Source: Balanoglossus misakiensis (Eukaryota > Animalia > Hemichordata). Taken from it: a stretch of DNA of 64,000 bases. Of the stretch, positions 5,336 through 61,300 are shown piece after piece. Within the stretch, counting starts at the first letter, position 1. Every line of letters begins with the position of its first letter. A program made the position numbers and the translations under genes. The stretch is taken from NCBI GenBank assembly GCA_040954595.2, contig CM082594.2, forward strand, positions 3,953,319 to 4,017,318. Direction: 5' to 3'. The notes below the pieces were generated by a model that was given only the letters and a program-made list of their open reading frames with translations, had not been told where the DNA came from and made no database searches.

Positions 5336-7317
5336 TTACCACTCAGAATAAATATATGAAGGTATGGCTTTGGGAGGGTGTTTACCCTTCAGTTCTTTGA
5401 CGTTTTTCGGCGATTTTGAAGTTTTGCCATGGGTTGCCATAGAGGGCGCACTGATCTTCCTCTGCCTTGGTGCCGTCGGACTACCAGGTGGGCTTTTCGG
5501 TTGGTGGTGAGGCATGCTGGGTAAACGAGAGGGCAGGCTGATTTTTCTCTGCGGAGATGTGGGGCTGCCTTGTCGTGGACTCTTCACGGTACTTCTCGGT
5601 GAGGAAGGGACGGAGCTGCGCGAGCCGACGCCGACTTTTCTTTGGCGGGAAACGTCGGGTTTGGGCGAGGAAGAGAGGGTTCCCGATCTCGGTGGCGACG
5701 ACGAGAGTTTGGACTGACTTGGCGGGCTTTTGCCCGTCGGGGTATGCTTCACCGGAGGTAGTTTCACAGTCCCCGTCGTCCAAGCGCGCTCTCTGCCCTG
5801 GCAATGGTCTTCGTCGTTGCCGGGCAACGACTTGCTGAGCAAGTTCGCTCCGCGGCGGGCCTCCTCGTCGAGCTCGTCTAAATTCGGAAGCGAGCCCGAG
5901 TGCTGGCGTAGCTGTGCGTAGTACTCCTTCATCTCCTGTTCCTCCGTCTCCTCGGCGTCCGGCTGCTCCGTCAGACGCTTCATCACCTGCCGGCCCATCT
6001 GGAAAGCCACCCGATGGGTACACTGTATCTGTTCGGCGTTCATCCCGTTCTTGCTGACCACGAAGACGCCGTAGTCCTTCCTCGGGTCGGAGATCGGGTG
6101 ACATGGTGTGGTGAACGGCGCGCGTTTCGTAACACTGGTGTAGTCCGACAATATTTTCCTCCCGCGTGCCTCGCGCGCTCTCCGCAACTCCGTTTTCTTC
6201 TGGGCGATGGGCGACAGGATAAGAATGTCTGGGGTGTGGCATCGTCCACTTTCCATGGCGTATTCCTCCGCTGTGCCGTAGTCTACATTATCTCTCAGCG
6301 TCAGGTCTGCCTTCCCCATGGTTACGAGAACCCTTGAAATGTCTTTGTAACCCATTTTGGCAGCTTCTAACAATGGCGTCAAACCTGTACGTTGTTGGGA
6401 GAAAAGAAAAGTCTATTAACTTCCAACAGGAAAAGCATCATAAGCCATTCTGTAACCTCCCTATTTCATTCATTCTCTCACTCCGGCCTCCAAATGTAGT
6501 CGGGACATGAACGCAGAGTTGGGGTAAATTCAGTAAATGTTACCCCTGCTGTAGATGGGTTTTTGACTCGCTAGATTTTGAAGATATTGTCGGCGAAAAC
6601 AAGAAGGCCCAGCCAAAAGACAACGTGCATGTCACCTTCATTAGCAACTACTCGTGCTATTGCCATGACTTTCATTTTTTATATAACTTGACTGTATAGG
6701 AAAGTTTTCATGAGGCTTCATCTGTTTTGAAACCGGCTGCAAAACATGCTAAATTCGCAGTTTGTTAAAGACTCTATCTGCGCACAAATTTGCGCTAAAG
6801 TGTTGCGTTCATTTGGCGACCACTTACCCAAGTTATTCTTCAAGTCCACTTTGAGTCCGAACTTTTTGAAGCAGTTTATGAGAGCGATCACGACCGACGT
6901 GTTGCCGGTCTGAGCGGCGGCCATCAACGGGGTATTGCCCTCGTCGTCCTGAATGTTGGGGTCGATGTCGATGTCCTCGGCGAACACCCGAACCAGGTCC
7001 TCGTGCTCCATGGCGCACGCGTGGTGCAGCGCCGTCTTGCCGCCGTTGTCCTGGCTGTTGATGTCCAGGCGCGGGTCCTCGATCATCTGCCTGGCTATCT
7101 CCCGCCGGTTCTTGGGCACCATCTCGGTGAAGCACAGCTTCATGATGGGCGTCATGTTCTCCTGCTTGGGGTCCTCGTAGTTGATGTCGATCCCCGTCAG
7201 CTTCAACGCTGTCCGCATCTGCGTGAAGCTGTTGCTTTTGATCGCCTCCGCCAGGTGAAAGTTGGCCTCCTTTGACTTGTTCCTCTGCATGCCTAATGAG
7301 TTGTCGTTTCGAACCAT
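5336..7317 (-). CDS. Ankyrin repeat protein, ANKRD63/ANKRD34-like, with S/P/R/K-rich disordered tail (~512 aa)
   Basis: Coding exons 7317-6828 and 6384-5336 with a phase-1 GT-AG intron. Ankyrin motifs GKTALHHAC, GNTPLMAAA and GLTPLLEAA. The segment LINCFKKFGLKVDLKNNLGLTPL resembles ANKRD63 LVRSFRRLGLRLDRTNRAGLTAL (recalled from memory). A strong acceptor at 7506-7508 implies upstream 5'UTR exons. Confidence 0.8.
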
Positions 7318-37600: not shown

Positions 37601-39935
37601 GGTTTTCTTTTCTTCTGTACCATCCATCACATTCATATAAACAAAAATAGCACAACAAACTCAAAATTACATATCCTGCTATTTATTTACACTCTAGTTT
37701 AACAAATCATTTAAAGACTTTTGACTGTGATAGTACAAATTTCAATGACCTCCCCATGAAGACCTAGTAAAACAATTTTCACCCAGAGATCTCCTGGGTT
37801 CCTAAATCATTTAGCATATTTGGCTAAAATTTAAGTGACCCCCCCCCCCCCCTGGATTTTGCCGCCACCCCTCGGCCGTAAAAACTGAACAGTCCCTAAA
37901 GCAATGATTTCTTTCCTGATAAAATCGACAAATTACTGATGGAAATTACTGTTATGCTGCTGAAAAAAACCCACAAAAAAACGCCTGCCTTTTTTGCTTC
38001 TTTTTGACATCACTAATTGCCCTTGAACATCGATCTCAGGGTGTCTGCCGCGGCCGTGTGTACAAGTATTCTGCAGACGCGCGGATACATGGCATGACCT
38101 CTAACAAAAGTTGCTACATCTTTTGTCAAGTTTTAGATATTTTGTTGCGACCGGAACGCTGAGCTGCGTTAGTTGTTGCAATTTGTGCGTTACTACGTCA
38201 ATGATACTATTTATAGAACGCCTATCTAAAGATTAAACTGGTGCGCTGAGTGAAATGGGCAACGCGTACTGTTTCACGATCCGGTGAAATGCGATCGTGA
38301 CTCGACAAATGATTTATTCTACTTTGCGTGTTCCGTGGGGAACTCCGGTAACATTTACCGGGGTACCGGCCTTAACAAAACACTGCAGAAACAATACATT
38401 GACAAACTTATCACACTGTGACAAAGGTGTGAACTACACGTTGTGCAATGTCGCGTCGATCATTCCCTCGAACGTCAGCCGCATGCAGAAACAATTACCG
38501 GGGCGGGAATGAAAAGAAAGCAGGGCGGCGCGTAAGATAGCAGGGCGGCAAAAAATAAAGGAGGGCGGGTCTGCCCTGCTAAAACCCCCCGGGGAGAACA
38601 CTGAATGGTATCCATGTGTGACAACAGTGATTCTTGATGTCATAACAATAAATTTGAATTTGTACAGTTAAAGGGACAAAGTCTCTCTCTCGCTGTCCTT
38701 TTTTCCATTAATTATGTTTCATACAAGACACTGTTTATGTTAATGTACATTTGGATATATAGTGAATCAATGATCAACCACACAAAACTTCCATCCCGCT
38801 TGTATGATATGAGAGTAAAAACTCGCCCAAAATGAATAAATGGTAAAGAACGATTATTCATTTTGGCGAGTATTTTTACTCTTGTGTCTACAAGTGGGAC
38901 GGAAGTTGTGTGTGGCTGAACGTTCATTCACTATATACATGTAGGATAACAAACGGTGTCTTGTATCAAATATAATTAATGGAAAAAAGGGCAGCGAGAG
39001 AGAGAGACTTTGTCCCTTTAAAATTTGTATTTTCCCAAATATGGAAATCATGGGAGACTGATAGCCACGTTGATGAGTTTGGGGACCAAAGTTAACACTG
39101 GTCACGTGTCGTTCACATTCTTGTCAACAAGCTGTGGAAACGCAGGGATACCATTGATGTTTTACAACTGCCCATCATTTTGAACACATTTTTTTTTCAA
39201 CAAAAACAAGTATGCCAGACAGATCTGCGAAAATGTGGTCCAAAATATCAAGCCTTGTGTCAGTCAACCCAATTCATATTCATGAGCATTTGTATAGCGT
39301 GGGACACTTGGTGTAGGGATTCAATCTTTACACAACACCACTGCACTAAACAATAATGACTAATGCATATGCTTGGGCAAATCCCCAGGCTTGGCTAAAT
39401 GTCTGTTTTTGAATGCACAAGACCCCATCACATTGCATTAAATTAAATTATACCGGTTTATGGAGGGGAATGTGTGCACATAAACAAGACAAAACACGCC
39501 TGCTAATTTTTGTGCAGTCAACCCTTTCCCGCTGGCCGCTGGTGTCGTGCACTATGCAAAAATTATATTGTCGTTCACAGAAAAAAATGCCTCCCGCAAA
39601 TCAAATTTAACGGCGAAAAACAAGTACATGACAAAGAATTCTTCAAGTCTCTACATGTGTACAGTCCCGTAATTATTCAGATGGTAAGTGGCAACTGTAC
39701 GTAAAAATAATGAACGATCAAAAATTGTCCGCCATCTTGAATCGTATGCAGCTCGCGCACTACACAACTGCTAAAGTATTTTTTCATTATAAGGCAGAAG
39801 ACAATTAATTACCTTCTGCAATCTTTCAACAAGGGCTGCTTTGTTTCCACTTTTATCTTTTCCTCGCTTCTCCAACTGTTCTTTAAGGTCTACAACTCGT
39901 AATTCACTAACTTTCTTTTTCGTTAGCCCAGTCAT
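28630..39935 (-). CDS. SAFB: Scaffold attachment factor B family protein (SAFB/SAFB2/SLTM co-ortholog), ~1329 aa
   Basis: Twelve phase-consistent exons: 39935-39813 (SAP domain [33 protein letters not shown]), 37308-37236, 37047-37019, 36709-36317 (acidic), 36185-36102, 35904-35877, 34316-33800, 32892-32846, 32512-32376 (RRM: [18 protein letters not shown]), 31728-31579 (RRM: [12 protein letters not shown]...[12 protein letters not shown]), 31175-30866, and 30728-28630 ([18 protein letters not shown] coiled coil, RD-rich tail). Total 3990 nt, divisible by 3. AATAAA on the minus strand at 27791-27796. Confidence 0.93.
35651..35737. mobile_element. Tiny piggyBac-like MITE
   Basis: TTAA|CCCTTTCAC ... 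GTGAAAGGG|TTCA: 9-bp TIR with CCC/GGG ends and a slightly degenerate TTAA site. Confidence 0.5.
37474..38603. mobile_element. Non-autonomous DNA transposon with 17-bp TIR and 5-bp TSD (hAT5-like), in SAFB intron 1
   Basis: AATGG|CAGTGTTCTCCCCGGGG ... CCCCGGGGAGAACACTG|AATGG. Subterminal AGCAGGGCGGC repeats near both ends. No long ORF. Confidence 0.85.
38672..39017. mobile_element. Foldback MITE with TTAA TSD and AGGG...CCCT ends (Kolobok-like), copy 1
   Basis: TTAA|AGGGACAAAGTCTCTCTCTCGCTG ... CAGCGAGAGAGAGACTTTGTCCCT|TTAA. Almost entirely palindromic. Second copy at 41153-41499. Confidence 0.9.
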
Positions 39936-40827: not shown

Positions 40828-43800
40828 TCACGAAAATCCAAAGAATTGATCTAAATTTTCACTAAATTTCTTGGGTTCTCCAGGCTTCAGGGGCTTCAGT
40901 GTTGATATATCCATTTCTTCAAGAGTTTTTGATAATTGGCTGAAAAATAAAATTGGAGGGGAAAAAATTAAGCAATGCATGTAATTGTTGATTCAACCAC
41001 ACAGTTTCTATTGCATGAATCTCCCTATACCAAGAAAAGAGTGCAGAAAATTAAAGTACATAAATATCTTAGAGACAATTTTAAGTACAAAGTACAGCAG
41101 CTAAATCTTCTTGATTTACCTTGCATTTTCCTTACTTTCCATAGAGGATTAAAGGGACAAAGTCTCTCTCTCGCTGCCCTTTTTCCATAACTTATGATTA
41201 ATACATGACGTCGTTTACGTCAATGTACACACGGACATATAGTGAATCAACGTTAGACCACGCACAACTTCCATGCCAATTGTACACACAAGAGTGAAAA
41301 ACTCGCCAAAATGAATAATCGGTGTTTACCATTTATTCATTTTGGCGGGACTTTTACTCTCATATCCTACGAACGGGATGGAAGTTGTGTGTGGTCAAAC
41401 ATTGATTCTCTGTATATCCACATGTAGAATAACATGAACGGTGTCTTGTATCAAACATAATTAATGGAAAAAGGGCAGCGAGAGAGAGACTTTGTCCCTT
41501 TAAGGTATGTTTTGACTTGGAAAACAAACAGTGAACACACTGATGTACTGGTATACTGTTAATTTCGTGCTACATGAGAAAAGAACATTACCTTGGTATA
41601 CAGTAAAACAGATGTCCGTCTTTGTAAAGTTTGTACGCCAGTTCAACTTGGTGGTTTCCCATCAGCTTTTCATTAATGACAACAACTAGTGGCTTCTTAG
41701 CACCCATGGTTTCTAGAACACTACCGGAACCTGTTTTTAAGGAGAAAGAAAAAGAACTTTCTTAGCAACTCAACATTGGCAGTTTAGTAGAACCGTAACA
41801 ATCCGCTAATGGACCTTTCAGGTTTTCTGATGGCAAATGACATCAGTGAGATTGCCATGACTTGTTTACCTGCATGACTGATGACCAAAGATGCTGCTTT
41901 CACGTCTTCTGAGATAGAATCTTTAAATCTAAACACATCCACGCGGAATGTTGGTGTTATCAATGGTTCCGGTTCATATTCACCGCGTCCAATCTGCAAC
42001 ACCAATCGCGTGTAGCCTAATCTCTCTAGTTGCTGAAAACAATAAGAGAACATCTATTAAAGTACCTAAGTCACCTGTACACATAGCTGCCAATCACAGG
42101 TTTTCACTTGGAGCTGCCAATCACAGGTTTTCACTTGGAGGGCAAATGTAAAAAAGTCCACCAAGACAGGATGTGATATGTATGCACGTATTATACTGGT
42201 ATCACTGTTACAAATTCTATTAGAAATTGCAGCTTCAGGGCAATGTCAATAGTCAATGTCTAGAAACCAAAACTTGCACGAAACTATTTGAAGCCCTGAA
42301 TAAACATGACCTGTACATGTATGTCACTGTAAGACAACCAACTGGACTACCTGCTTGTGTGTATGGTTAATAATATTAGTTTTTGGATTTTGCCCTGGTA
42401 ACCATTAATATCCTGGAACAAACTTCAGTCGTGCTCCTTTTGAAGAAACTAGTATTTTCCCTCTTCATTTCTGACTGGAGCAGTCCACAAATGGTCACAG
42501 AATTAATGTGATAGCAGATTTCCACCACTATGGTTTAATCCAAAATATATTGCTTTCTTTGGTAAAGTGGGACCTCTAAAGAAGGAAACAGGGGTGAACT
42601 GATGAAACAGTAAAGGTTCAGAGGAAATGGGAATCAGGCGATGTCCGCTCAAAAGTTACACAAATCTATTGTAAAATACAAACACTGGTGTTCACAGTTC
42701 CACATATATATTGCTACAGATAAGCTACACTTTTATTTTCACCGAAAATGCATGGAAAGCTATTTACAGGCCAGAACTGAAGTAATTTTGGGCAGCACAT
42801 AAACTTGTATCCTTTCCCAGAATAACTGATTTTGCATCAGAGGTGGAATCAAATGAAGCAATGCGACAGTAAACATCAATACAGGGTTTGGACTTTGGAT
42901 TATAATCCCTTGGGTGGAGGGACTGTTTTGATTTATAGTAAGATGACCCCACTTGGACACAGGGTTTTTGGCGGGAATTAGTATAGGTATGCCAGAGAAG
43001 AAAGGTTAATGATTGACTAGAGTAAAGGTGTTTTATTTGTTTCCTGTGAGGTTTGTCAATAGCCGGTTTGATTGATTATTCACCTGGGCCCTATTTTTAG
43101 TAGTCATATTGGGGATACGACTAGGAAAGACCATGGAAAGACAAATGCTCTAAATAAAGTCAAAATCTTGCTATTTTTTAAATGCTGTTTAGAGCTATTT
43201 TCAAGTACAATAACAGTCTTTTTGTTACTGTTCATAATTTTCTTAGTCAGTCAGTGATCTCTACAACGTAAAATTCAGCTTTCTCAAAAAGATACATTGT
43301 ATCATTTTCAGTAGACACCTGTCAAGGAGAGAATATGAAATCATATATAGTACCATATCATGGTTGCTTTTTGTTTTCATGTTAGATATTTTGTCATGAG
43401 TGACCTGGGTTTTGAGTGACAAGCAAACGTTTCCAAAACACGTGTATATATGGCCATTTTCATGACCCCCATCTTTGACCCCATATCCCGGTACATGTAT
43501 TTCTGTTGAGATATACTATAGCCGTTCCAGCATTCAACGAAGAATGCTAAAAGTTGAGCTCTGAAAAAACTTAAAGTAGCAGCGAAATATATGTCAGCTG
43601 ACCAGCACTATGGTCTCAAGATCGATACCAAACTGACAGATCACACGAAAATGCAAGAAAGGTCATGCCACAAATGTCAGGTCATGTAAGAGTCATGCAA
43701 ACGACCACTTGTTTTACAATTTGTAACTAACCTTTATCATGTGTTTACAGGAGTTAATTCACTCTGTATACACATTCTTGTTCGCATATCAGAAAAGGCA

Positions 43801-45480
43801 GCCCTGAAGAAAACTTCAGATTGATGTTTCACTATTTAAAGAATAGGGGAGGGGGTCAGTGTGAAATAGGTTGAAGTTTAGAAAGTGAGACAGTTTCTTT
43901 AGAATAATTCTGAGTCTGAGACAACTGTTACCATGGAAATCTAGAAGCAAGAATCATACCACTGGAAAATGTGTTTACCAATACAGTGTTCAAGACTGGA
44001 AAATTGTTTTTTCCAACAACTTTTGATATAATCAGATTTGGGTTGTTTGGTTTCCTCTTCCCATGTAACAGGTGTGACTAACTTTCAGAGATGGATGCAT
44101 TGTTCTAAAAATGTAAAATAGTTTTTTTTTTAACTTGCTAGGAAAAACAAAGAACCGCTACACTATGTACATTATTATTAGTTCAAACAATGTTGCGGTG
44201 GACTTGACCTCTGAAGATGTTATATGGAGTTTATCATATTTTATCTAAATACATTTTATAAAGAATTTTGTGACACCGTTTTTTTTATTATCACTCATCA
44301 TACTCAGTGCCCTTGTACGGTTTGACATTGAAATCCTTGATGTTGGAAAATGGTAATTAAACTTGTCACCCACATGAGTCACTGGTACTACATTTCTATG
44401 TGTACCATGGTTTCGAAAAACAATATCAAAGCAATGCACAACTGATGAACTAGAACACCTGAAACATGTAAACACTGTTACAACTTAGACAATATACAGC
44501 ACCTGCATGATTTTTCAAGATTTATTCTGGAGTTGGTAAAAAACTAGTGTGTTTATATAAAAACTGTGACAGATTTTTGAGGTTATATTTTTGTCACTCT
44601 TCCAACATTTTGAAAAGATCCGCCTACAGCATGAATCATGTAGTCTGTGGTGAGTCAGAAATGATCTGAATCAAACGGAAGAATCATACAGGTTTGAAAA
44701 CAGAAAAACAGTCCTGTGGTAGTTATGGTCGCAGCAACACCAACTCTCCAAATCACGAGTTTCTTGGAACTTGGAAGTTACATTTTTGATCAAATATTTC
44801 AAGCGAAAAACCAGCAGTGATAGTAAGGTGAGTTATGGCTTTGTGTGTGACAGAGTAAGTGATGTAAACATTCTGTGAAAATCAAGTGAAAGCGGTTTTT
44901 GGAAACCGAGTTCAGCAGTTACCCTGTGTGGATGTACACTGTGACCTTCTTTTGTTACAAAGCATAATTTATAGTAGATTGATACATTTTGGCAATCTTA
45001 TACCATGGAGGTAGTACATTGCAACAACCAACAATACACTTTGTTACATTTCATGTACATTTTTGGAGGCGTCCGGCGGAACCTAACCTCAGGTGTATGT
45101 ACTCTATTGTCCGCGCGTAAAACGGTCGTCATGGACAATACTACACACCACATGTTTGCTGTTTTATATGTGTATGAATGGCAGTGCACCAGACCGAACT
45201 CAATCATGACATTACGTAATTCTTGCCATGCATATCAAGTTTGTTCTGATCAGCCTGTCTGACAGAAACACATAGGAAACTGAATCACGACATAGCCGCT
45301 TTCTTCTGTTTATCCAATTCTATGTTTCAAACAATAAAACGACAAAAATGAATCACTCCAAAGTTGCAACTGTGCATCATGACTCACTTGACGGATGCCA
45401 TGGCTTGATACGGTCTCGATCAAGTCGTCAAATTTTGTGGTTCCGACAGTGACAAATGCTATCTTCTCACTACTAGCCAT
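40828..45480 (-). CDS. ALG13: UDP-N-acetylglucosamine transferase subunit ALG13, short GT28-only form (~168 aa)
   Basis: Exons 45480-45388 ([15 protein letters not shown]), 42032-41870 (LVLQIGRG...LVISHAG), 41730-41592 (SGSVLETM...[17 protein letters not shown]) and 40939-40828 (stop TGA). All GT-AG and phase-consistent. Confidence 0.93.
41153..41499. mobile_element. Foldback MITE with TTAA TSD (Kolobok-like), copy 2, in the last ALG13 intron
   Basis: Same TIRs and TTAA flanks as 38672-39017; its central loop is approximately the reverse complement of that in copy 1. Confidence 0.9.
42085..42140. repeat. 27-bp perfect tandem duplication
   Basis: AGCTGCCAATCACAGGTTTTCACTTGG occurs twice in tandem. 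Confidence 0.9.
42958..44928. mobile_element. Candidate non-autonomous Chapaev-like transposon in ALG13 intron 1
   Basis: TGGA|CACAGGGT ... ACCCTGTG|TGGA: CAC/GTG termini, 8-bp TIR, 4-bp direct repeat. No long ORF. Confidence 0.55.
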
Positions 45481-45762
45481 ATTCCATTTTAGGGCCCCTT
45501 GTCCTCTTCCGGGATCATTAACTCTTAAGAAAATGGTAATTTCCAGTAAAAATTACATAACTAAATTTATTATAAATAAGAAATATCAGATCAATTAATT
45601 ATCTAAGTATAATAAAAAATTATCTTAGATTGTAAATATATGGTGTAATTTAGCGTATTGTTAGTGAAAGCTAGCGAACGAGGTTAGTCACGTATCCCGT
45701 CAGCGAAAGAGTGACACGTGGTTTGACGCAGTGCATTGTGGGTTACGCACAGTGTACAAAAA
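45481..45762. promoter_or_regulatory. Bidirectional promoter between ALG13 and NTAQ1
   Basis: Divergent start codons 282 bp apart. ZNF143/Staf-like AACCCACAATGCACTGCG on the minus strand (45727-45744), E-box CACGTG (45715-45720), and ETS-like CTTCCGG (45506-45512). Confidence 0.65.
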
Positions 45763-48285
45763 ATGGCAGCAGTGAGTGCGTCTCTCTTCGCGCCTCGTGA
45801 TGACTGCATTTATACCTCCTGTTATTGGTAAGTTTGACACCCAAAAAATATTGCAACGTCTTTCTGGTACTTTGAGGAACGTTCTGGGAGCAGTTTTGCA
45901 AGAGTTGCACGGAACTCCATCATAGTGAAAACGATTTTTTGAGACTCCCGCGTAATAGATTCGTTAGCATGAGGCCAAGGGTCAGAAGCAGCGTCGCGTG
46001 GGTTTGGGGGCCTCGTGGTCCACAGCGCGGGAACCGTAAAAAACGCGTAATTTTTCAAATTTTACCGGCAAAATTATTTTCCCTATGCTTCTTTAGTTGT
46101 TTTGAACAAAATTCAGTGCATTGTTTGCATTTGCGGGGAGATTTTTGGCGCCTTTTCAAACTCTCGCGATGAAGACTTTTGTTCACGCGTTCATTTTGAA
46201 AAATGCTCGTAAATTTGTAACAGTCGGACTGCAAAGTTCAGCGTAAACGGGCCAAAGGCCACAAACGGTCGTTTTTAACTAATCAGAAATTTCCTAAGGT
46301 GTTTTTGAAAGACAAGCGAGCAAGTTTTCCTGGTTCTGATGCGTGAGAACCCGTGAAAATTGCATTGAAAAAATCTGTTTTTTGTTCGAATGAACATGTG
46401 TCGTCCATTTTTACTACGAAGTGTTTACTATGGCCCCATATTTGCATGCGCACAATTGCGCGTAGAGCAGAAATGGCGTGTTCATTCATGAGCTGTACGT
46501 GTGAATTTCCAAACGAAACCGACACAAAATTACGTCAAACTGTAGTTTATTTCATATTTTTACCATTTGTGAACCCAGACCACACAAACCCGGCAGTTTG
46601 GCACCAGAAAAGTAGAAAGGAATGCAGTTTTCATTGTAATTAACGAAGTGACCTATTTTACGTTCAGCGGTCGATTCGCGCCAACTTCGTGGAGTGAACT
46701 TAAAAAAGAGAGGGAAAATTGAATTTCGCAGAGAGCTGTGATTTCAAAGTACACTTATGTCCTTTAGTATTTATTCCGGGCATGCATAATTACTTCGCAG
46801 CGTCCCCGCGTGGGGTTCCTTTTATAAAGAGGCGGGAAAATGAACTCGCTGCACCTCCAGTCCACCATCCTCGGAAAAGCAAACTTGGCACTTTGCCAAC
46901 AATTGTGACAAATGCGTAATAGCCCTACAGATGAGTCACATTTTTTGCCTTTCGTGCGTTTTTCGTCTTTAAATATTAATGGTGGTTTGTTTTTCTTGTG
47001 CAGTGAAGAAAATGTGTGGAAGTTATGCGAGTTTGTCAAGGACAGCCACCAGGAAAAATTAAGAGAATTGTTCGTGGTTTTTGTGTCCAATGGAAATAGA
47101 ACGGTAAGTTGCGTGGGAAAATTCGTTTTATACACATTTCAGACAAAGAAAAATACTGAATTTCTTTAACGTTGATAAGCTTTTGCCTTTTAAGTTACAT
47201 TTTCATTTTGGCGACTTATTCAAGGTTTCACTGCTAAAATAATTTGTTTCTCATTGCAGGTCCCATTATGGAAACAAAGAGCTGCCAGGTCTGCAGAGGA
47301 ACCTGTAGTTTGGGCAAGTTAAAAAAAAATGAAATCACTGGTGAATAACACCTGTGGTTAAAATTTAACCAGGAGTAATTGCATTTTTGGCGCTCAGTTT
47401 TGAATGAAGACTTGCTAGTTACACAAAGGAAAGAAAAACAAACAATGTGATAACACTGTTAGTTAGGCATGCCCCAATTTAGATTGCTAATCAGACTTCT
47501 GCCTTTTTCATGTAAATGCATGCATCTACTTGTCTCCTACTGCCAATTACTATACTGGTGTTGATTACTACAAAGAAACAAGCTTATTGAAATTGCCTCA
47601 CTATTATGTAATATGGTCAGAACATTGCTTTATGACCCCAAGTTCATTGCCAAGTTCAATTTTATTGGCTCATCTTTTGTTTGACAGGACTACCATGTCT
47701 TCATGGTCAGCTCTGAACAAAACGATAGTGATAAAGTGTACGACCTGGATACAACACTGGCATTTCCTTGTAAATTCAGTCAATATTCGTCTGAAACATT
47801 TCATTCAGATATTAGACTACGGCCAGGATACCACAGGTAATTTATATCAAGGACTTGGAGAAAGGAACTAAATCACTGAAAAATACCAGAGGATGTCATT
47901 TGCTATGTTAAAACATTTTCCCACTTAATTTCCCCCTTTTTTACAAGATGAGCTATAAAACGTGTTCTGTTTACAGGAAATTCAGAGTTATTCCAGCCCA
48001 GACCTATCTGGAGAAATTTGCCTCTGATAGATCACACATGTTCAAGAATGGGAGATGGCTCTCGCCACCCCCAGAATATCCTTGTATTGAAACAGAAGGT
48101 GAGTGAGTGTACATCTCATCTTTGTGAGACATGGCGAGAAAATTTGGGTTTCTCGTCTTTCTGACTGGGCATTTCTTTGTTTTGTAGAGTCAAAAATGAA
48201 CTTGGATGATTTTATCTCGATGGATCCAACTGTTGGTTATGGGGAGGTTGTTAGTTTGGACGAGTTCAATACAAGATTTTCCTGA
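45763..48285 (+). CDS. NTAQ1: Protein N-terminal glutamine amidohydrolase NTAQ1/WDYHV1 (~195 aa)
   Basis: Exons 45763-45827, 47004-47103, 47260-47313, 47688-47836, 47977-48098 and 48188-48285 give [60 protein letters not shown] and [16 protein letters not shown]. Catalytic Cys/His/Asp motifs present. Intron 3 has a GC donor. AATAAA at 48543 and 49996. Confidence 0.95.
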
Positions 48286-48581
48286 AAGCCATATTTTTTG
48301 TTAGAGTTGCATTTGGCTGCTATTCAGTTTTGAATTGCTAGAAAAGTGCAAATATGCAAGTTCCAGAAAGCTTTTGAAAGTGTGGTATTTGTACCTTGTC
48401 ATTTACAAGTATGTCTGCAGTCCCATAGAGTTTAAGTATGCTTGGAGACTTAACATTTTAACGTAAAGCCTTGTATGTAAAATTGTACTCTAAAAAATCA
48501 TTTTACGAGAAGTTATTGCTGTGAATAATGTATATATACCAGAATAAAGGTCCGTGTTTCTGGATTTTTAAAAAAAACTTT

Positions 48582-48670
48582 GGGTTTGACCTTTCAGTCT
48601 GATTGGTATTTTCATCTGTTGGAATCGAAGCCATACAGTAAATACCATTCAGATTGCAAGGTTTCTTCCC
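48582..48670 (+). ncRNA. Putative pre-miRNA-like hairpin 1 of 4
   Basis: CAGTCTGATTGGTATTTTCATCTGT-loop-ACAGTAAATACCATTCAGATTG (core 48595-48656), plus lower stem GACCTT/AAGGTT. Confidence 0.55.
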
Positions 48671-48732
48671 TCTTCTGCGCCCTGGTGGATATCTACCTGC
48701 CTGTCTTTTTTGGTCTTCAAGGATTTTGTGAA

Positions 48733-48810
48733 TGGCGATCCAGTCTCAGTGTGCATTTTCATCTGTCTGCATTTCGATGGACAGTAAATGCCACTGAGAT
48801 TAGAGCGCTG
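48733..48810 (+). ncRNA. Putative pre-miRNA-like hairpin 2 of 4
   Basis: CAGTCTCAGTGTGCATTTTCATCTGT-loop-ACAGTAAATGCCACTGAGATTA (core 48741-48802), plus lower stem GGCG/CGCT. Confidence 0.55.
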
Positions 48811-48930
48811 GTCACAGCATCAACAAAGATCATCTGTCGCGGTTATTGTCAGATATGGGAGACGAATGTCCTTTGTCCGCAATCTCAGCTGGTTTCTGAA
48901 TGTTCTGAACTCTTCTCAGAGTGATGGCTC

Positions 48931-49004
48931 TTGCCTGCCAATCTGAATGTGCATTTTCACTGTGTGCCTGAGACAACAGTAAATGCCATTCAGGTTGACT
49001 GGAA
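48931..49004 (+). ncRNA. Putative pre-miRNA-like hairpin 3 of 4
   Basis: CAATCTGAATGTGCATTTTCACTGT-loop-ACAGTAAATGCCATTCAGGTTG (core 48939-48997). Confidence 0.55.
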
Positions 49005-49079
49005 TGATGCTACTTTGCACCGAGCGATTTTTCAACCTCCTGTTTTGAAGAAGATGAAACTGTTAATTGTCTCATGGAA

Positions 49080-49167
49080 GACAGACCACACTTCAGTCTC
49101 AATGTGTATTTTCACCTGTGCTTTTTTGCAAACAGTAAATACCATTGAGATTGCAGGGTACTCTGTC
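49080..49167 (+). ncRNA. Putative pre-miRNA-like hairpin 4 of 4
   Basis: CAGTCTCAATGTGTATTTTCACCTGT-loop-ACAGTAAATACCATTGAGATTG (core 49094-49153), plus basal stem GACAGA/TCTGTC. Confidence 0.55.
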
Positions 49168-52100
49168 AACAAACACACGGTGAACTCCACTATTTGGTGC
49201 TTTGGATTTGAAGTAGTTCCCACAGCACTGTCCTTTTCATGTTTTTGAGAAGATTATACGGTGCCATTAATCCTGAGTTTGGAAGGTCACTTTGGGCGCT
49301 GTACAGTGTGAAGAAAAGGTCCCTACTGTTTGGGTTAACCTTGGTCACTTGTTGGAATGTCGGCATGCGCACAATAGGAGATTTTGGGTCATTGTGTTGA
49401 AATTAACTCTTTTGCAGTTGGTGTGCACCCCCCTGTCTGGGTTTTTTAGAGTTCTTTGTCTTGTGTAGAGATCCAGGTCATACAATTGTTGGGCGGTCTT
49501 GTTTATATTTATTATGGAGGATGAAATGGTGCCTTGCCATGATATTACTGCGTCTGTGGATAGTTTGTTGTATAACGTTGGTACCTTATTTAATATCTCT
49601 GCTTTTTCTTCAGCAGTGATTTTTTTTCCTCCCATACAACATAGGATTGACAAAGAGGAAGAACAAAAGATATGCTTCACTGCAGATGTGGGTTGCAACA
49701 GCTGTTTGCATTTCTATTGTCTCGCAGTATAATAGATGATGTATACAGTGAGAAGTATGATTCAATTCAAAGCTCTGTAGTAAAATATAACAGAAATGCT
49801 GCACGTTTTCTTTGCTGGACGTTTACTTTCACAATTTCTTTGAGACAACCAGACATCTGAACAGAGGTTGGCATATGCACACGGACACTTGCCACAAACA
49901 TTCATGTATGCATAATGCCCTCTGTAGTGTTTCACACTTCCATTATTGAAGTTTTGAAAGAAGACTATTGTGTAACTTGTGATATTGTAGTCTTGAATAA
50001 ATGTCACCTTATTGCATTTTACAATTTGTGTGTGTAGTAAGTTTGTGCAAATTGCCCAATATATGAATGATGGTGTCACAGCTGTAGCTTGCAAGTAAAT
50101 ATGCAAGGCAAAAATACCTGGTCACATGGCCCAGTTTCCTTCCCATGAACTCAAAATCTTTTTAAACCAATAAATGCAAGTAGATACGCAAAATTTACAT
50201 TGGTGTATAAGTTGGCCAAATTGCAAACCAGTCTGAACTGAACCTAAGAATTCTGATTTTTTTGGAAAGTTCCCTATTGAGGGCGCCATATTCTGAGATC
50301 CAAGATTCACGCAGTGAAAGAGGCTACGTGCAGTGACTGAGATGGCCTATCTTTATGTATAAACAGCATTCAGACAAAAGAAACTGACCAATAAAAAAAC
50401 CTTTACTAGACCACTGCACACTACCTGAAAACAGAACAAAGAAACGAAACACAGCACACAATCTTTTCACTTTTGTATTTGACTTTAATGATTTTTCAAG
50501 AGGTTATATTGCAAGAAATGAGATGCGTATATCAGTTTCCGATTTACAGTGAGCTTTTATCTAGTTTATAGGGAAAATACACGACATTCCTTGTGAAGAC
50601 AAGTTGGCTGATAAAAAAGCGCCCCCAAGTGTTGGAATCTACAAGTCCATCCAACAAACACAAAACAATTTCAAAACCAATCAGGAAATACTGCCAACCT
50701 GCAGTATTTTACATCGTCTCGTGTTTCTACTTGCAAAACATTACCACTTGAATACAAAAAACGTCACATTTTCAGGTCAAAGAAGACCCTACATCATCAT
50801 ACCAACAAATCACAATCTCGCACCCCCCCCTTCTGCATATTGTCAATCAATATACATACAAACTTCATCATACCAACCAGAATAAGTGTCAAACTGAGCG
50901 AAAAACATGTCAGCTTTGCTCATATTATTTTAATAGTGGCCATACACAACTTCCATCAGTGATATCAATAATAACAATATAGTATATTGAAGCTTTTCTA
51001 GGCAAGACTAATGAAGCATTTTGAAAAAGATTACTAAGCAATACTTGGCTTATACATAATTCGTGGCAGCATAGCATATTTTTTATCATGTACATATTGT
51101 TTTGAAGAATTTTTTTTTACAAAATACAAAGACAAGTTATATTGGAGTGTTGATACAATGTTTGGCAACTGGAATACAAATACAGTGATGTGCAGATACA
51201 TACATTACATGCAACACACACACACGCATGCACACAGACATACACACACACGTCAACCACTGAACAGCTAAAAGAAAATTGTGCACACCCGTACAGAAAC
51301 ACCATGAAACCAGTCTTCCACCGTGCAGAGAAAACCTTGATCAGCATGTTTTCCATAACATAAAAGTTGTAGCTCACTAATGCTGAAGAAAAGTTAATTT
51401 TGTGATAATTTGCCATTTTACATGGAAACAGATTTCACTTCATGATCTTGCATGTCGCAACTTGCCAACTTTCATACTTTAATATTACATGAACTTCACA
51501 CAGTCCTCGAAACACCTGCATGTTGGAGGGATTCCATGTGTTTTTTGTATTCCATACTCAGGTTTTTATTACTCTTTTCTATCGCACCGTTCGTGCAAAG
51601 AATATTTTCAGAAAGAGCTGCCACAGACACACAGGCTTATCTTCGGAAGACCACACTGAATTAATTTACAACATTTGCCTATACAGTGTGGATAACGAGT
51701 ATACAACATGAAAAAAACATCAAATACAGGTTAATTGTGAGATGTCTCGGAATTGCCAAACCTTCACAGTTGTTCATATCTGAAGATTGCAAGGAGATCA
51801 ACAAAAAATTTAATACGCAATTTCTATATTTTTTTATTACATTGAACTAAAGCTGTAACCTAGTTGAATGTGATTGGATACCGTGGCAACTATTATGCAG
51901 CTAATAGTGTCGTGTGTGGCTGTGCGTACGTATGTGTGCATATGTGTGTGTGTGTGCGTGTGTGTCAGGGGTAGCGTGTGAGTGGTGTATCTCAGGTCAC
52001 ATGCTGACGTAGATGGCTCACATACGCACCGAGGATATGGCAACCCCTCTCTCTCTCTCTCCAAGAATTTTACAATGAACTCTTTTACATCCTGATTTCC

Positions 52101-52329
52101 AGAACTTACATTATTATGACAACCATGAAAAATTGATGAAAAAAAATCAGAGCTTTTGAAAATCTTGTTATAAGATCATGATCAGAGTTAAGAAATTCTA
52201 GCTATACTACCATCCCTGTGTGAAATGGGTTAAGTTTTTTCGCTGTCTCTAGGTCCTTGAAAGAAACTGCACATGCTACATTATATCTCTTCTGACATTT
52301 AAGTTGTATAAATGTAAATAAGACGTCTT

Positions 52330-54014
52330 TCATGGCTCCTTGGGCAGCTGTGTCTCTATGTCCACACGGCATATGGGACACCGTTTATTGGTCAATAGCC
52401 ACTGATCCACACAGTTTATATGGAAGAGATGCATACACGGCAGTCGTCTGAAAGAGGAACAAATAAAATATAAGCTATTTCATTCACGTTGTATTTTTCA
52501 TTAATCCAAAAATCTGATGGGAAGTTCAACTTTCTATGTGTTTCTATGAGTCCCAATAAAAGTGTGCAAATGGGTCACGGTGTGAACAATAACATTGATG
52601 CCAAAGTTGATTTACTTGAGTAGGACTACATCAATGTTTTTGAATATTTCCCATTAGTGTTGTGGCACATTTTGTATCTACTGTAAACCTACACAATACT
52701 AAAAGAAGTTATTCCAAATATTTTCAGTTTCTCTCCATTTTTTTCTGACCAGAGGTTTAACGGCAAAGAATTGAAGGATATCAATCATCTCTTACCTGAC
52801 ATCATCATTATCTTCAAATACTGACAGACATATAGTACATTTATCGCCTTCCTCTTTATCAGCCTCCTCTTCTGCTGGATCTCGTTTTCTCTGTTGGGAA
52901 AAAAATGATTTGACTCTAAATGTCTTTCTGTGTCTCACCACATACCCCACCTTATAATTTTATATAGCAGACGCTAACAAAAGTTTTTATACACACCCCA
53001 CCCTAAACAACACAGTTTCTTGGCAAAAGTCTTGACACTTCAGAATTCTTACCTTGTGGAACTTGTGTGGAAAGGTGTTGCGTTCTATGGTGCCTTGAGT
53101 GGCTCCTCTATTGACGTGACCAAGACGGTCTTCCAGGTTGACAAGCTCCTGCAGGAAAGTACACGAAGAATTACAGTACATGCAGAACGAATCAAACAAA
53201 AGCATGGCTGTTGAAAACATTTGAGAACATTATCTCACGTTCTACACCAATCTGTGTACTTGTATTTGGCCACTTATCTCTTTCTCTTAGTCAGTCAGTG
53301 AGTCAGTCAGTGTGTCTCTAGCTCTGCCTCAACTTTCTCCTGTCAGACTGTCCCGAGCAAGATCTGACTAATCATGTACAATCATACATAACCTCATCGC
53401 ATTATAAAATTAAGAATAAATCTAACAGCTGGAAATGAGTTTATCAATTTTGGCATCAGCTAATCTCTTGATTTTGCTTATAAAGAAGTCTGTAGCAAAA
53501 CCAAAACAAGAGAAAGTCTGTTCAGCTACTGAAACTTATCTAAGACAAAGGCACTGTCATTTTATCATGCCCCCCAGTGCCCTACCTCATACGTAGGTCG
53601 TCCAAACATCAGCCTGGCAGTTCTTGACATGACACGACCTAGCATCGGAGGATAATGTCTTGGAGGGAACGGTGGATGGGCCACTACATCTTGCATTTGC
53701 GTCTGCTGATGAAAGTCATATCAATAGATTATTGAAGTGACACTCACTAACGTTGGTTTGCTCGGATATGATACATCCAGAAAATTCCAACACAGTAGAG
53801 TGGGACCCGGTTTAATACTGAAACACCTCTTATCTGAACATCTGATTATGGCATAAAATGATTTTATGTCCCATTATGTTATGCACATTTATTTGAAGGG
53901 TCACTTTTCCAAACAAAAACAGCCATACCCAAGAAATTATTTATCTATACACCTCTCGTCTGCATTTATCTCACAGTGCATTGTATATGTTTGTATGGAT
54001 AATGATGATGATGG

Positions 54015-54050
<36 letters not shown>

Positions 54051-54053
54051 CAG

Positions 54054-54089
<36 letters not shown>

Positions 54090-54149
54090 CAGTGATGATG
54101 ATGATGATGATGATGATGATGACAGTGATGATGATGATGATGATGACAG

Positions 54150-54182
<33 letters not shown>

Positions 54183-54512
54183 CAGTGATGATGATGATGA
54201 TGATGAGAGTGATGATGATGATGATGACAGGGATTGCGCTAGGCCTCAAAATCTTGGGGTCCCTGGGACCCCTTCCTTGTGAAAATCAGGGGTCCCTAAA
54301 TATTTTTGTGGGTCCCCATTTTTTCAATATATTATAACACATACGTACTCGCCACACACTTACTGGCGAAGTCAACATCACAATTTAAGTGTATTTCCAC
54401 ATTTATTTTCATTTTCTATGAACGTTTCATTTTTTATTATAAAGTAATTTCCTTCTGGCTTTCTGTTCATTGAAGTTTGACATAGCTTGAGAAAAAGATT
54501 TTGCCAATCAAT

Positions 54513-54550
<38 letters not shown>

Positions 54551-55348
54551 ACAAACAATAAAATCGCGGAGGGAGAGCCCCCTGTGTTTATACGGGGAAC
54601 CACAGAGAGGAAGCGATGCATAGCTATCGATGTCAGAGTGTTCTGATCGTTGACGAGTTTTGCCCCCATATTTAACCCAGTCCAGCTACATGGAGTCGGA
54701 TAAATCAAAGATTTTCAAGCGAAAACGGGTGAAAGGATTACATGTACACCAATGAAGATAGACAGGCTGTAAAAAGCATAATCAAAAGCGAGAAATTTTC
54801 TCTTTTTTGCGGAAATCAAACACATAGAACGAGGGAGTCAACAAAGACACCCGCTGAACTGTCGAAAACAAGGTCGCGCGCGTTCGATTGACCGTGCGCG
54901 GTACATCGGGTCCACCGCTCGATGCAGTCGGCCGGCTGCATGGGTACGTCCCGCGATCGCGCGCGACCACCCGCTCTCGACATCGGCCTCTAATTAATGA
55001 CACATCGTTCACAACTTGTTGACAAGGCAATTGGCGGACCTGCCAAAGGAAAAACGAAGCCAGTTTTTCTTTTGTTGTCAGGAAAACTCTAACATGCTTT
55101 AGTCAAATGATTATTTCACACTTTGTTTTTGTTTACAAGTGTCAATCTTCTGGATTAGCAAGCCGTAAAAGCGTTTTTGAATAAACAAATTAAAATTACA
55201 AGACGATCATTAATTACTGCAGTGTGCGCTCAGCTGGGGTTCCCCGGACGCAGACATCAAAGTGAACCCGCGTCCCAGCAAAAAAGCTTGCGTCCCGGAC
55301 GCGGAATTCTGCGTTAACGCGATCCCTGGATGATGATGATGATGACAG

Positions 55349-55384
<36 letters not shown>

Positions 55385-58300
55385 CAGTGATGATGATGAT
55401 GATGATGATGACAGTGATGATGATGATGATGATGATGATGAGTGTGTGTGTGTATTTGTGTGTGCATGTGTACCTAGTGCAAGTTCACATTTCATCGAAA
55501 CTTCAAACTATCCTGATAAATCGCTTACCATTCCGTGTCCAAACGTGACGTGTATACCGGGCGCCGGAGTGAAGTGGTGCAGCCTGGGCGGTGGATGGTG
55601 ATAGTGGTGTAGATGATGATGTAAATGTCTGTGTTGATGCTGTACACCGCTGGCGTCCCCGTCGGCTCCCGGAGCCATGCCGGGTCCAACTGCAGCCCCG
55701 GCTGGTGCGATGCCCGGCCCGACTGCACCACCACCCAGGCCTGGCCCTACTGTGGGGGCAGTGGCCGCAATGCTTGCGCCGTTGGACGCCACTGCTGTGA
55801 CTGTTGCTTCTTGTTCCCTGTGAATTCATAAAATTACAGAATTGATTAATATACTTGTACTGTACCAGTATTTCTGGTTTCCCACTTGCCTTGTGAATTG
55901 TATAATTTGTACGGAGAAATGCCAACTACAAGAATTTGATATATTTTACAAAATAAGAGTGCAAATTTTCAGCAAAACCTGATTGTATGTCACACTAGAC
56001 TGACACTTAAGCCTAATCCTAAAATTGCCCACTTTGATTGACTGGAACATGGCTTCAATACCTGTTAACTACAAGAGAAACATACACAAATACTTGGTAT
56101 TCTAAAACTGTAACTTTGTGAGAAAACTCGGATTAATGATGACACACAAAATATCAGAAGTTCTTTGATAACTTGTGGGTTTTATCCTGCAATTTTTAGA
56201 GAATTAACAGAGGACTTGTTTACTCACTGGTCCGTGGTGATTACAGTTGCGGCACCTGCCCCATCAATGTAGACTGCAGTTTGTACAGCACCTTGTTGCT
56301 GCTGCTGTTGTTGCACCTGTTGTTGTTGTTGCTGCTGCACCTGTGCTGTCTGTATTGCCGCTTGTTGCTGCTGTTGTTGCTGTGCTTGCTGCAGTCGGTG
56401 CGCTTGCATGTACAGGCTTTGTGATATCCGTTCTCTTTGCCTGCAAACACATTACATTGTAGATTGGTAGATTCATGAGTGTAGGAATCAATCTGGCTTG
56501 TTGTTATTTTTTGTCTATTTTCACACTTTGCTTGAAAATAAATGTCACATCCTGAGAGATGCATCAACACACCAAATACTATGGTGATTGATCATAGGAT
56601 CTCAATTATGCGGTGGATGGACCTCAATACAAAAACATTGAGACACTCAGACGGACAGAAAACATGCATTGAGACCATATACGTACACATAAACATACAT
56701 ACATACATACATACACACGCACACATACATAAAAACACACACATACCCCCCCCCACACACACACACAGACAGACAGACAGACAGACTCCTACAGATGCTA
56801 GACATGGATTGGGGACATAAGTTCCCACTGCTATAGATGCATCTGGCAAACAGTAATGGTAATGTTTACTTCAGATTCAGAATATCTAAGTTCCTTTTTA
56901 CTTTAGACAGTCTGACAAGGAAGTGCACTTTGCGATCTGTTTCTCACCTTTGCATATTCTGTTGATGCATCTGCAGCCTGCGACGATGCTCCTCCTGCAT
57001 CCGGTGGTGTTGCCGCAGCAACTGCTGGTGGTGCGGCGGAAGGTTCTGATGGTACGGAGGCGGGGCGGCCGATCGCTGGGGATGATAGTGGACTTGTGGT
57101 GACTGATGGTGATGTAGTCGTGATGCATTGCTGCTTGGAGTAACTGTACAGGACAGAGAAAGATGCATAATGAAGAGCAAATTCTTCATTGGATTAAGTG
57201 CTCTGGGTGTGAAACTGGTATTAAACCATGACACCTTCCCAAATACTAGTGGGCATATAGCCAATTTTCCACCTCACTACAGTAAAAATCTACAGAAAAC
57301 AATCTGAAATCACAGCGATGTAGTGTACAGCCTTTTCTCCCAGTATGTAAGTCACAAATTTCACCACTGACAACGATGGGAGTTAGTTTTATTCAACAGC
57401 AGATTGACACTGGCATCCAATAACCGACAGAGAGAAGCGACGTGTCTTACATGCAGATTGTTCAGACTGACCACAAGAGGGCAAACTCTGATTTTGAGAA
57501 CGTTGCGGATGCGGGTGGTGATGGTGGTGATGCCGTGGTGGTTGTCGCTGTGGTTGCTGCTCTTGTTGCTGTTGTGGGTGTTGTTGGTGTTGGTGCTGGT
57601 GTCGCTGGCACTGCCTGACTGGTCGCTGTGGTTGTTGTTGTTGTTGTTGTTGTTGTTGAAGTGACTGGTTGCTCTGTTGTTGTTGTTGTTGTTGGCTCTG
57701 AGCTTCCACAGCACAGCTTAAACGATCACCTGTCGAGCTGCCACTGCTGTTTGCAGTGCTACAGTTTGTGCCCTGTAAAAAAACAGAATTATTCAAATTT
57801 AGTCTTTACTGTGATCAGGGGTCACGTATTTCAAGCAAGGATGTACCCATCCATCCATCCATCAATCCATCCATCCATCCATCCATCCATAAATCCCTCT
57901 GTCCATCTATCCATCCATACACACTTCATTCACTCTCAAACTTACATAGTAATTGTGCTTTAAACTTTGATACACATGTAACTTAATTAAAAATTTTCAA
58001 AGCTGATTATACATGTACTTTTAAGACACCTTGGCTGATTGATTTTTCCACAGGTATAGCATTAGATTTTCCAGATTTTTAGGTGATATTCTTTGCACAA
58101 ATTACCACAGATTTTAATACACAATTTTCTTCCAGATGTGAGTTAAGTTGACAACAACATACATTACTCTGCCAATGTGAACAAATTTTCAACTCTGACA
58201 ATAAGATAAGGTAAGGCACACTTAAGACACACACCTGTGAAACGAATGACGGCAGAAACCAGTTCAGCGGCGAGCTGTTTTGCGGTCCACTGGTCGGCGG

Positions 58301-61300
58301 TGGTGGTAGCGGCGCAGCAGCAGCAGCTGACTGCGGCTGCCGGCAGGTGTTGCAGGACACGATGCAGGACGGCCTCTGACAGCACGGAGCGGGCGACGAC
58401 GAAGAGGCCGACGGCGACGGCCCCAGCTGCGGGATGCTGAGGTGTAAATGACGTCGCGTGGGCATCTCGCGGGACAGCGACGTCTCGGCGCTGCAACTGG
58501 CCGGCTCCTGGCACTGCTGCGACTGGCCCTGGCAGTCGGAGGAGGCCAGGCACGACGGCGGCGGCTGCGAACACTGTTCGTGCGCAGGAGAAGGCAATCC
58601 GTCGGGAGCATCGGAGTCCGGCCGCAGCAAAGCGGGTTCCTCCACTGACGAGGCAGATATGGCTTCAACAGAATGCAGTCCACTGCTTCGATCAGATTCT
58701 ACAAACAAGGGAAGAAAAAAAACATACTTTCATCATGACTTTCATGTGTAAGATTCAAACATAACATAGAAAACAATATGACTGAACTACTTAGAGGAGG
58801 CAAAAGCACAGTGGTAAAGACATGAGGTGCCAATGGCATTGACCACGGCCATCACCCAACAGGACAGGGTGTGTTATTACATGCTCATAGACTAACATGG
58901 AAGCTAGTTATTGGCAATGCTGATGTAAAAAAGGAGTATCCCATAACACAATTTGGAACCAACCCTGCAATTCAGGTTGTTACATGTTCATAAACATGGA
59001 GGACACTTTTTGGCAATCTGATTTAAAAAGGAGTAGCTCATCCAAATTACCGAGTTACACAATATGGAATCAACCCTGAAAGTCTCCTACCTTCATCTGA
59101 TTGTGTCAGATCAACCACATCGACTGCTGCTCTGGCTCTTCGTCTTGCTCTAGCACTCTTGTTTCTGCTGGACTTGGTTGACCCGTGCTCCTTCTTAATG
59201 TATTTACAACTACTGTAGCCAGAGAAAAAACAAGAAATTTTGTGATGACTTGTGCAAGATTACTATCAGAAATATGAATTATATTGATACCTCTCAGACA
59301 CATCTCATCTACTGTATATGATCTAATGCACCTTAGTATCTTATTTCATGTCAAAATAAGAAAGAAATCTGCCTGGTCAATGTGTAGCAACACAAACCAG
59401 TATTGCATGATCCTTGCATTCAGTCTACCGCACTGAAATCAAATTCAATGATGTCATTCAGCTTGGATATTGCATAGTTTCATTTTCTTAGAACCAAACC
59501 TGAAGCTTTCTTAAAACAGCAAGGAAAGTTTTATGCTGCCTTTTCCTTGTGCAATGTTACAAATGGCAATGCAGTCAAACCTCTGTTAGTGGCCACCTCT
59601 ATATAGTGGCCACTTTGTTACAGTCCCTGTGCAATTCACATGTACATTAATTAACCTCTATATAAAGGCCACCTGTCTATAAAGGCCAATTTAGGAAAGT
59701 CCCTTGACTGGCCGCTATAGACAGGTTCGACTGTGCATGCAAAGTTTCTTCCTGCAAACAAATCTCTTTGAGTTCAATTAGCCTCACCTAACACCATTGA
59801 GCTCGTCGTCGCTGTCGCTGTCCTGGTCGTCAATGGCAACCACCTCCACATCACTGTCGCTGTCCGAACTGGAGCTGCTGCTGCTGCTCAGTTCAAACTC
59901 CATGTCGAAGCTCTGCAGGGGGTTGCTGGGTCCGGGCATGGGGTCATCGTCGATGATCTCCACCGCCGAATCGTCCAGGGAATCGGCGGGCGTCGACGTG
60001 CCCACAGTGCCGTTCTGCAAGCCACTGGTGGAAGGCGCACCGACAGCGTCTCGCGGGGAACCACCGAGTTCGCTGATATTAACGACTCCTCGCACATTGC
60101 CGGGTTCGTTGACGCTCACAATGTCGATGTCGGAGTCGTCGTCCGAGTCGCTGCTGTCGTCCGTGATCAGCCAATCCGTGGAGGACTCCATCCGGCTGCT
60201 GACGTCGCTGTGCGCCAGGATGCCGCTCGTCGAGGGTTCAACGTCCAGGACGTCGTCGCCGGGGAACGGCGCCGGCTCTGTGTTGCCGCGGGACAACGAC
60301 GGCGTCTCCGACGTGGCCAGGCGCGCGTTGCTCTGCGACAGCGAGACAGGCCGGCTGAACGCCGAGCTCTCGCTGACATTCAGCTCTGTCCTCTCCAAGT
60401 CGAACGTCCTCTGCCTGTGCGGGAACATGGGCATCATGGCCCGCTGCTGCTGTAAATACGCACACGTCGGCCGGAACGCCGTCTTGGACATGCCCAGACT
60501 CGGGCCGTGCATGTTCTCCTCCAGCCCGCCCACCAGCGGGTCGCGGAAACCCATCAGCGCCGGAGCGGGCGGGACCGACACGACGCCGCTCTGCTGGTGC
60601 ATGTTCCTCTCCGCGTTGGGCAGGCTGAGATCCAACACCTCCTGGGCGCTGGACACCACGCGCGATATGACATTGTCCGTCAGCTCGGCGGACGGGTAGA
60701 AGTTCCCGCGGCTGGGCGACGTAGGGGGTGCGCTGGAAGCGGACTGCGTCCCGGTCGTGCTGGTCACAGTTTCTCTGGACTCGACGTTCCCGTTACTGGC
60801 ACTGTGCACGTTCTTGTCGTGCTTACTCTTCAGTTTCTTGGCCTTGTTGCCGTCCTCGCTCGGCCGGCGACAGAACTGGTACTCGGCCACTTTCTCCGCG
60901 CACATCTCGATGCGCGACAGATCCACCGCGTCGTCCATCAGGTGGTCGAACTGCTGGAAAAACTCCGGCCCGCTCATGGGCGTCGACTCCTGCGAGTTGG
61001 TATCCAGGGAGACCACGTCGATCTCATCTTCATCACTCTGGTAGTTGCCATGGTGATCGCCGTTGCTGAGGATGCCTAGGAGACCCACAAGAGAGCAGTG
61101 TAGAATGCAGTACAAATTGCTGTTGCAAGGACACTTTTGGAAATAATACTGGGTAAAATTTATTTTTGTTTCAATTTTTCAAGCCAAAAGATACACCGCA
61201 AAATTTATACTCAAGGTTTTCTGAGATTAGAGGATGGGATTTATACTGATTAGATTTGAACTGTTGGCCACAATACACAATCTGCAGAAGACTATGAAAC

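Follow-up and report, generated by a model that had tools for sequence, protein, structure and literature searches.

MIR-4828 is a MirGeneDB family of microRNAs that is dated to the Hemichordata node (PMC11848845 Dataset S1). According to the supplement of that paper, three Sko-Mir-4828 copies of Saccoglossus are located at NW_003123408.1:368927-368991, 368809-368871, and 368588-368648 on the minus strand. They lie at the 3' end of the wdyhv1 gene (368990-371607, minus strand), on the same strand as the gene, and the gene model ends no more than 2 nt from the 5' end of P1, the 65-nt copy that comes first after wdyhv1 (PMC11848845). Three Pfl-Mir-4828 genes of Ptychodera are tabulated in tandem as intergenic with no host named (PMC11848845), and the synteny between this gene and MIR-4828 is therefore established for Saccoglossus only. 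In strand order, the precursor lengths are 65, 63, and 61 nt in Saccoglossus and 65, 65, and 61 nt in Ptychodera, and the spacings between 5' ends are 120 and 223 nt and 158 and 198 nt, respectively (PMC11848845). Supplementary Table 2 of MirGeneDB 2.1 adds P4 for each of the two species and exchanges the names P2 and P3 (PMC8728216), so that P1 to P3 fall in strand order. Four copies were thus already known, although the table in PMC11848845 has three. As for processing, MirGeneDB scores three motif types, the basal UG, the apical UGU/G, and the 3' CNNC (PMC6943042), and processing is boosted when the loop has a UGU at its 5' end (10.1101/2020.05.05.078014). These motifs are supporting but not required features. 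A described system with a comparable layout is VMP1-miR-21, in which transcripts bypass a poly(A) signal just upstream of the hairpin before cleavage by Microprocessor (PMC3413119).

The 64-kb stretch of DNA analyzed here (the window) contains four paralogous stem-loops, starting at 48595, 48741, 48939, and 49094, downstream of the gene NTAQ1. NTAQ1 is also named wdyhv1. The four hairpins are very probably MIR-4828-P1 to P4, an assignment made by clade, synteny, geometry, and copy number and not by sequence alignment. The features of the locus are as follows.

45763..48285, plus strand: coding exons of NTAQ1 (WDYHV1), ATG at 45763 and TGA at 48283-48285; probable host of the cluster or source of read-through
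48543..48548, plus strand: proximal AATAAA; candidate signal, 47 nt upstream of precursor 1
48595..48658, plus strand: predicted pre-miRNA 1, probable Mir-4828-P1; 64 nt; basal UG at 48581-48582; UGU at +23; CNNC at +17
48741..48804, plus strand: predicted pre-miRNA 2, probable Mir-4828-P2 (P3 before MirGeneDB 2.1); 64 nt; basal UG at 48727-48728; UGU at +24; CNNC at +17
48939..48999, plus strand: predicted pre-miRNA 3, probable Mir-4828-P3 (P2 before MirGeneDB 2.1); 61 nt; basal UG at 48925-48926; UGUG at +23; CNNC only at +19
49094..49155, plus strand: predicted pre-miRNA 4, probable Mir-4828-P4; 62 nt; UGUG at +24; no basal UG and no CNNC at +16 to +19
49996..50001, plus strand: first AATAAA 3' of the cluster; candidate signal; others at 50169 and 50390

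The precursor lengths in this list were predicted by placing the 5' cut at the C that is conserved in each 5' arm and allowing a 2-nt overhang. The four stem-loops had been proposed in a preliminary description of the sequence, and their positions were borne out by both arm matches and folding. The consensus of the 3' arm matched exactly at 48635, 48781, 48976, and 49132. With as many as three mismatches allowed, no other site in the 64 kb matched; 0.01 chance matches were expected, and four matches were reached in none of 100 shuffles. On the plus strand, the fold energies of copies 1 to 4 were -38.1, -41.1, -34.4, and -35.0 kcal/mol, with z scores of -6.67, -5.51, -4.15, and -5.53 (from -4.2 to -6.7), and none of 200 shuffles per copy equaled them. 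The plus strand folded better than the minus strand in three of the four copies, by a margin of only 1.3 kcal/mol in copy 3, and copy 4 showed no plus-strand preference (-35.0 versus -35.5 kcal/mol). The preference of the covariance model for the plus strand is built into the model and was not counted as evidence.

On the four-copy alignment, 96.7% of the pairing cells were paired, compared with 25 to 42% in slid controls. Changes on both sides were observed in 5 of 23 pairs, including G-C/C-G, U-A/C-G, and A-U/G-C swaps, in agreement with the compensatory changes named earlier; this covariation and the shuffle counts are descriptive and not probabilities, because only four related sequences were compared and the structure was derived from them. 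The G-U pair claimed for every copy was present in all four (column 8-66 in three and 9-65 in one), and the internal bulge was also retained throughout. The arms were conserved, with 82 to 95% identity among the 3' arms, and the loops and flanks were divergent, with 13 to 47% identity among the 30-nt flanks, as the preliminary description had it for arms and loops. Below the 5' arm, copies 1 to 4 had 9, 16, 10, and 16 lower-stem pairs, respectively. In addition to the basal stems described earlier for copies 1, 2, and 4, copy 3 thus has one as well, although a weaker one. Each copy is an imperfect hairpin of about 60 nt with well-paired arms and a lower stem, as is canonical for animal microRNAs. 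A fifth copy was found in the window neither by a hairpin scan nor by a model search, in which the next-best score was 18.6 bits compared with 81 to 87 bits for the training copies.

Four lines of evidence connect these hairpins with MIR-4828. First, the host is a hemichordate, as nearby proteins are closest to those of Ptychodera, Glandiceps, and Saccoglossus. The open reading frame at 5336-6409 on the minus strand had five matches, including proteins of Ptychodera flava (76% identity), Glandiceps (62%), Saccoglossus (53%), and a sea star (36%), and that at 59787-61082 on the minus strand had its sole match in Saccoglossus (46%). Second, the cluster lies directly 3' of NTAQ1 on the same strand, as in Saccoglossus. 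Third, the tandem paralogues agree with the catalogued ones in order, length, and spacing: the first three predicted lengths are 64, 64, and 61 nt with spacings of 146 and 198 nt, and copies 1 to 3 together span 344 nt, compared with 343 nt in Saccoglossus and 356 nt in Ptychodera. Fourth, there are four copies in the window and four in each catalogued species, of which P4 would be the last in the row. The feature is real and its class is correct, but the family is already known. The cluster had been called unrecognised in the preliminary description, and this is not supported, given the curated MIR-4828 genes at the 3' end of Saccoglossus wdyhv1 and the four paralogues in both Saccoglossus and Ptychodera.

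It is very improbable that a different microRNA family occupies the same place after NTAQ1. The link to MIR-4828 is known by synteny and geometry and not by sequence, and Rfam gives no family name, which leaves some room for such a family; however, the same neighbor, the same strand, the near-equal precursor lengths in matching order, the 198-nt second step of Ptychodera, and the four copies would then all be coincidence. In Rfam, seven matches were obtained at E values up to 5 in 46000-53000, none of them at the gathering score, and the best match overlapping the cluster, mir-571 over copy 2, was rejected (24.1 bits versus a gathering score of 40). The sequence of MIR-4828 was not found by a motif search of main texts, in which only an unrelated paper matched, or in the supplementary material available from PMC6007596, PMC11848845, PMC8728216, and PMC10435380. 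The available parts of PMC4729200 and PMC11521371 likewise contained nothing on the family.

The identity of the upstream gene as NTAQ1, which had been proposed earlier, was supported by matches to Nt_Gln_amidase (PF09764) in both of the two exons tested. Sequencing data consisted of three contig-level runs from one sample. A spliced contig of run X3 skips the NTAQ1 introns at 47837-47976 and 48099-48187. The third intron (47314-47687) appears to start with GC and not GT: the spliced X3 contig has a loose end that reaches 47313, and with this boundary the exon sum stays a multiple of three. Immediately upstream of the proximal AATAAA, an allele of run X1 has 36 different letters in place of about 80 nt of the NTAQ1 3' UTR (48434-48515). 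The end of the spliced X3 contig at 48544 coincides with an allele-caused break in the X1 contigs and is therefore not evidence of poly(A) signal use. Run X3 gave no cover over the hairpins and thin contigs at 49143-49844, which were not weighed either way.

Several other genes are apparent in the window. Exon-like stretches on the minus strand at about 41590-45600, seen by eye, suggest a gene in a head-to-head arrangement with NTAQ1. A convergent downstream gene lies at about 52700-61180 on the minus strand; its large exon has one match, to a Saccoglossus protein (46%), and no Pfam match, and its short 3' exons look to us like an Arkadia/RNF111-type C terminus. At 28630-36730 on the minus strand, a multi-exon gene contains an RRM exon (PF00076), acidic stretches, and an Arg/Glu-rich last exon, and seems to resemble the SAFB/SLTM family.

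Marks of animal pri-miRNAs are present in the cluster. The canonical offsets are -14 for the basal UG and +16 to +18 for CNNC. A basal UG was found at -14 in three of the four copies (P = 0.004 at the local dinucleotide rate, or P = 0.012 allowing three registers, with the copies treated as independent in both values). A UGU was found at +23 or +24 in all four copies and CNNC at +17 in two, and in copy 4 UGU was the only one of the three motifs. These marks bear on a second explanation, namely, that NTAQ1 has a long 3' UTR in which the hairpins are repeats of a cis-acting RNA element that remains uncut and serves protein binding, localization, or decay. In favor of such an element, the array is flanked on the NTAQ1 strand by AATAAA signals (those described at 48543 and 49996 are both present, and others follow at 50169 and 50390), and all copies have the internal bulge. 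In contrast, the UG at -14, the UGU where stem and loop meet, CNNC at +17, and precursors of 61 to 64 nt are marks of microRNA processing, and the syntenic hairpins of Saccoglossus are curated as microRNA genes in the supplement of PMC11848845. This explanation is accordingly regarded as highly unlikely, and the hairpins, processing motifs, and Saccoglossus synteny support the earlier proposal of a polycistronic microRNA cluster on the plus strand downstream of NTAQ1.

Least probable of all are MITEs or other dispersed inverted-repeat remnants with no RNA function. The arms are near-palindromic, and two MITE-like copies with a hairpin at their center do occur in the window (38668-39021 and 41149-41503). 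Here, however, conservation covers the arms and not the loops or flanks, direct repeats on either side of a copy reach 5 nt at most and lie at inconsistent offsets, and the window has no fifth copy (next best, 18.6 bits). Dispersed copies with target site duplications, which the preliminary description named as the sign of a MITE, were not seen within the window and the contigs, with no consistent flanking repeat and no extra copy. The contigs give weak evidence on this point: those at 80% likeness (6, 7, and 4 in the three runs of one sample) tile the locus together with its alleles, and no contig can be assigned to a second place, but short divergent copies and filtered records would escape.

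Other repeats were observed in the window and in metagenome contigs. The two copies of the palindromic element at 38668-39021 and 41149-41503 are about 355 nt long and 81 to 84% alike, with identical 12-nt inverted ends that start and finish with TTAA; this MITE-like element is perhaps of a TTAA-targeting type, in our view. A direct repeat pair is found at 713-846 and 4482-4733 (89 to 93% alike); its first copy shares sequence with a strong hairpin located at about 736-825. Inverted repeats 85% alike are found at 31937-32014 and 32239-32317. Five metagenome loci from a pattern scan were rejected as chance matches, as they had no blastn similarity to the window and a best model score of 21.6 bits. 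Four of the five have a dispersed repeat in common. In the metagenome contigs L001, L002, L003, and L005, such a repeat extends to about 880 nt with 71 to 83% likeness, and L001 contains two copies of it in inverted orientation; it is unrelated to the window.

Sequence variation at the locus was in line with selective constraint on the stems. In the contigs of the one sample, none of the 14 listed substitutions fell in the arms or basal stems, and neither did any of the four indel events among those listed (12 of 13 indel rows, with the rows at 49031-49067 counted as one event). One variant was located in the loop of copy 3. The variant region was 851 nt, of which the arms make up 23% and the arms and basal stems together 35%; variants near contig ends are left out of the contig variant tables. 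Because the variants come from one sample and are linked in haplotype blocks and not independent, they give only modest support for constraint.

The hairpins are very likely Mir-4828-P1 to P4, predicted to be cut by Drosha and Dicer from one plus-strand transcript that is likely NTAQ1 read-through past the proximal poly(A) signal. In the proposed mechanism, one plus-strand primary transcript would carry all four hairpins, and Microprocessor would cut at the conserved C of each 5' arm, in a register fixed by the UG at -14. Microprocessor and Dicer would then release short duplexes, as expected from established microRNA biology. A 9-nt block at the start of the 3p arm is invariant, whereas 5p positions 2 to 8 differ among the copies, and the 3p arm is therefore favored as the main product, which would probably be loaded; pairing with the UGU motif also partly holds this block. 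With the U starts proposed in the preliminary description, 3p products would be only 20 nt long if they end at the Drosha cut that the basal-UG register predicts. A start 1 to 3 nt further 5' would give products of 21 to 23 nt with different seeds, and at 23 nt all four copies would share one seed. The 3p products may repress mRNAs via seed pairing, with copies 1 and 4 on one side of an A/G difference and copies 2 and 3 on the other. Copy 4 would probably be processed less well, given its lack of UG and CNNC, or be helped by the neighboring hairpins.

The source of the transcript would be read-through of NTAQ1 past the proximal poly(A) signal. NTAQ1 is the closest source of transcription. We lean slightly toward read-through over a separate promoter inside NTAQ1, and a dependence on NTAQ1 alternative polyadenylation or read-through, as suggested earlier, is plausible, with VMP1-miR-21 as a precedent. 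The end of the wdyhv1 gene model of Saccoglossus gives a hint of read-through, but the ends of gene models can be arbitrary. A more far-reaching suggestion, which we put forward tentatively and with less than even confidence, is that MIR-4828 of acorn worms has no promoter of its own. At the poly(A) signal 47 nt upstream, each NTAQ1 transcript would then be committed to one of two fates, an mRNA or four microRNAs, a switch that might have been kept since the split of Saccoglossus and Ptychodera.

These results add a third enteropneust to a hemichordate-specific microRNA family that is used as a clade marker, which is of modest importance, and indicate that all four MIR-4828 copies and their processing motifs were kept. 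They also indicate that a family with no Rfam match and no open main-text mention can still be present in MirGeneDB. In the literature searched, no main text names mir-4828, and its seed use, targets, and coupling with NTAQ1 thus appear to be unstudied there. One point of some interest is whether the cluster arises via bypass of the NTAQ1 poly(A) signal.

The locus can be compared with three described systems. MIR-4829 and MIR-4830 are also clade-restricted hemichordate tandem clusters of three or four copies with precursors of 61 to 70 nt. However, they are at other loci for which the table gives no wdyhv1 link, and their lengths or spacings do not match; lengths of 61, 70, and 61 nt with spacings of 205 and 186 nt, 61, 66, and 63 nt with 228 and 227 nt, and 65, 62, and 61 nt with 351 and 472 nt all fit worse than those of MIR-4828. 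Human VMP1-miR-21 resembles the locus in that a microRNA hairpin lies just downstream of the poly(A) signal of a coding gene (PMC3413119). In contrast, its gene and microRNA are unrelated to those described here, its hairpin is single, miR-21 also has its own promoter in the last introns, and the distance from poly(A) signal to hairpin is a few hundred nucleotides (PMC3413119), compared with 47 nt here, where we infer the bypass. Catalogued MIR-4828 differs in its first step, which is 158 or 120 nt and not 146 nt, and copies 1 and 2 are predicted to be about 1 nt off in length; the present host is a third species, with 76% protein identity to P. flava. The locus resembles catalogued MIR-4828 in its enteropneust host, in its four tandem paralogous copies, whose precursor lengths and spacings correspond in order, and in its place directly after wdyhv1/NTAQ1 on the same strand, as in Saccoglossus.
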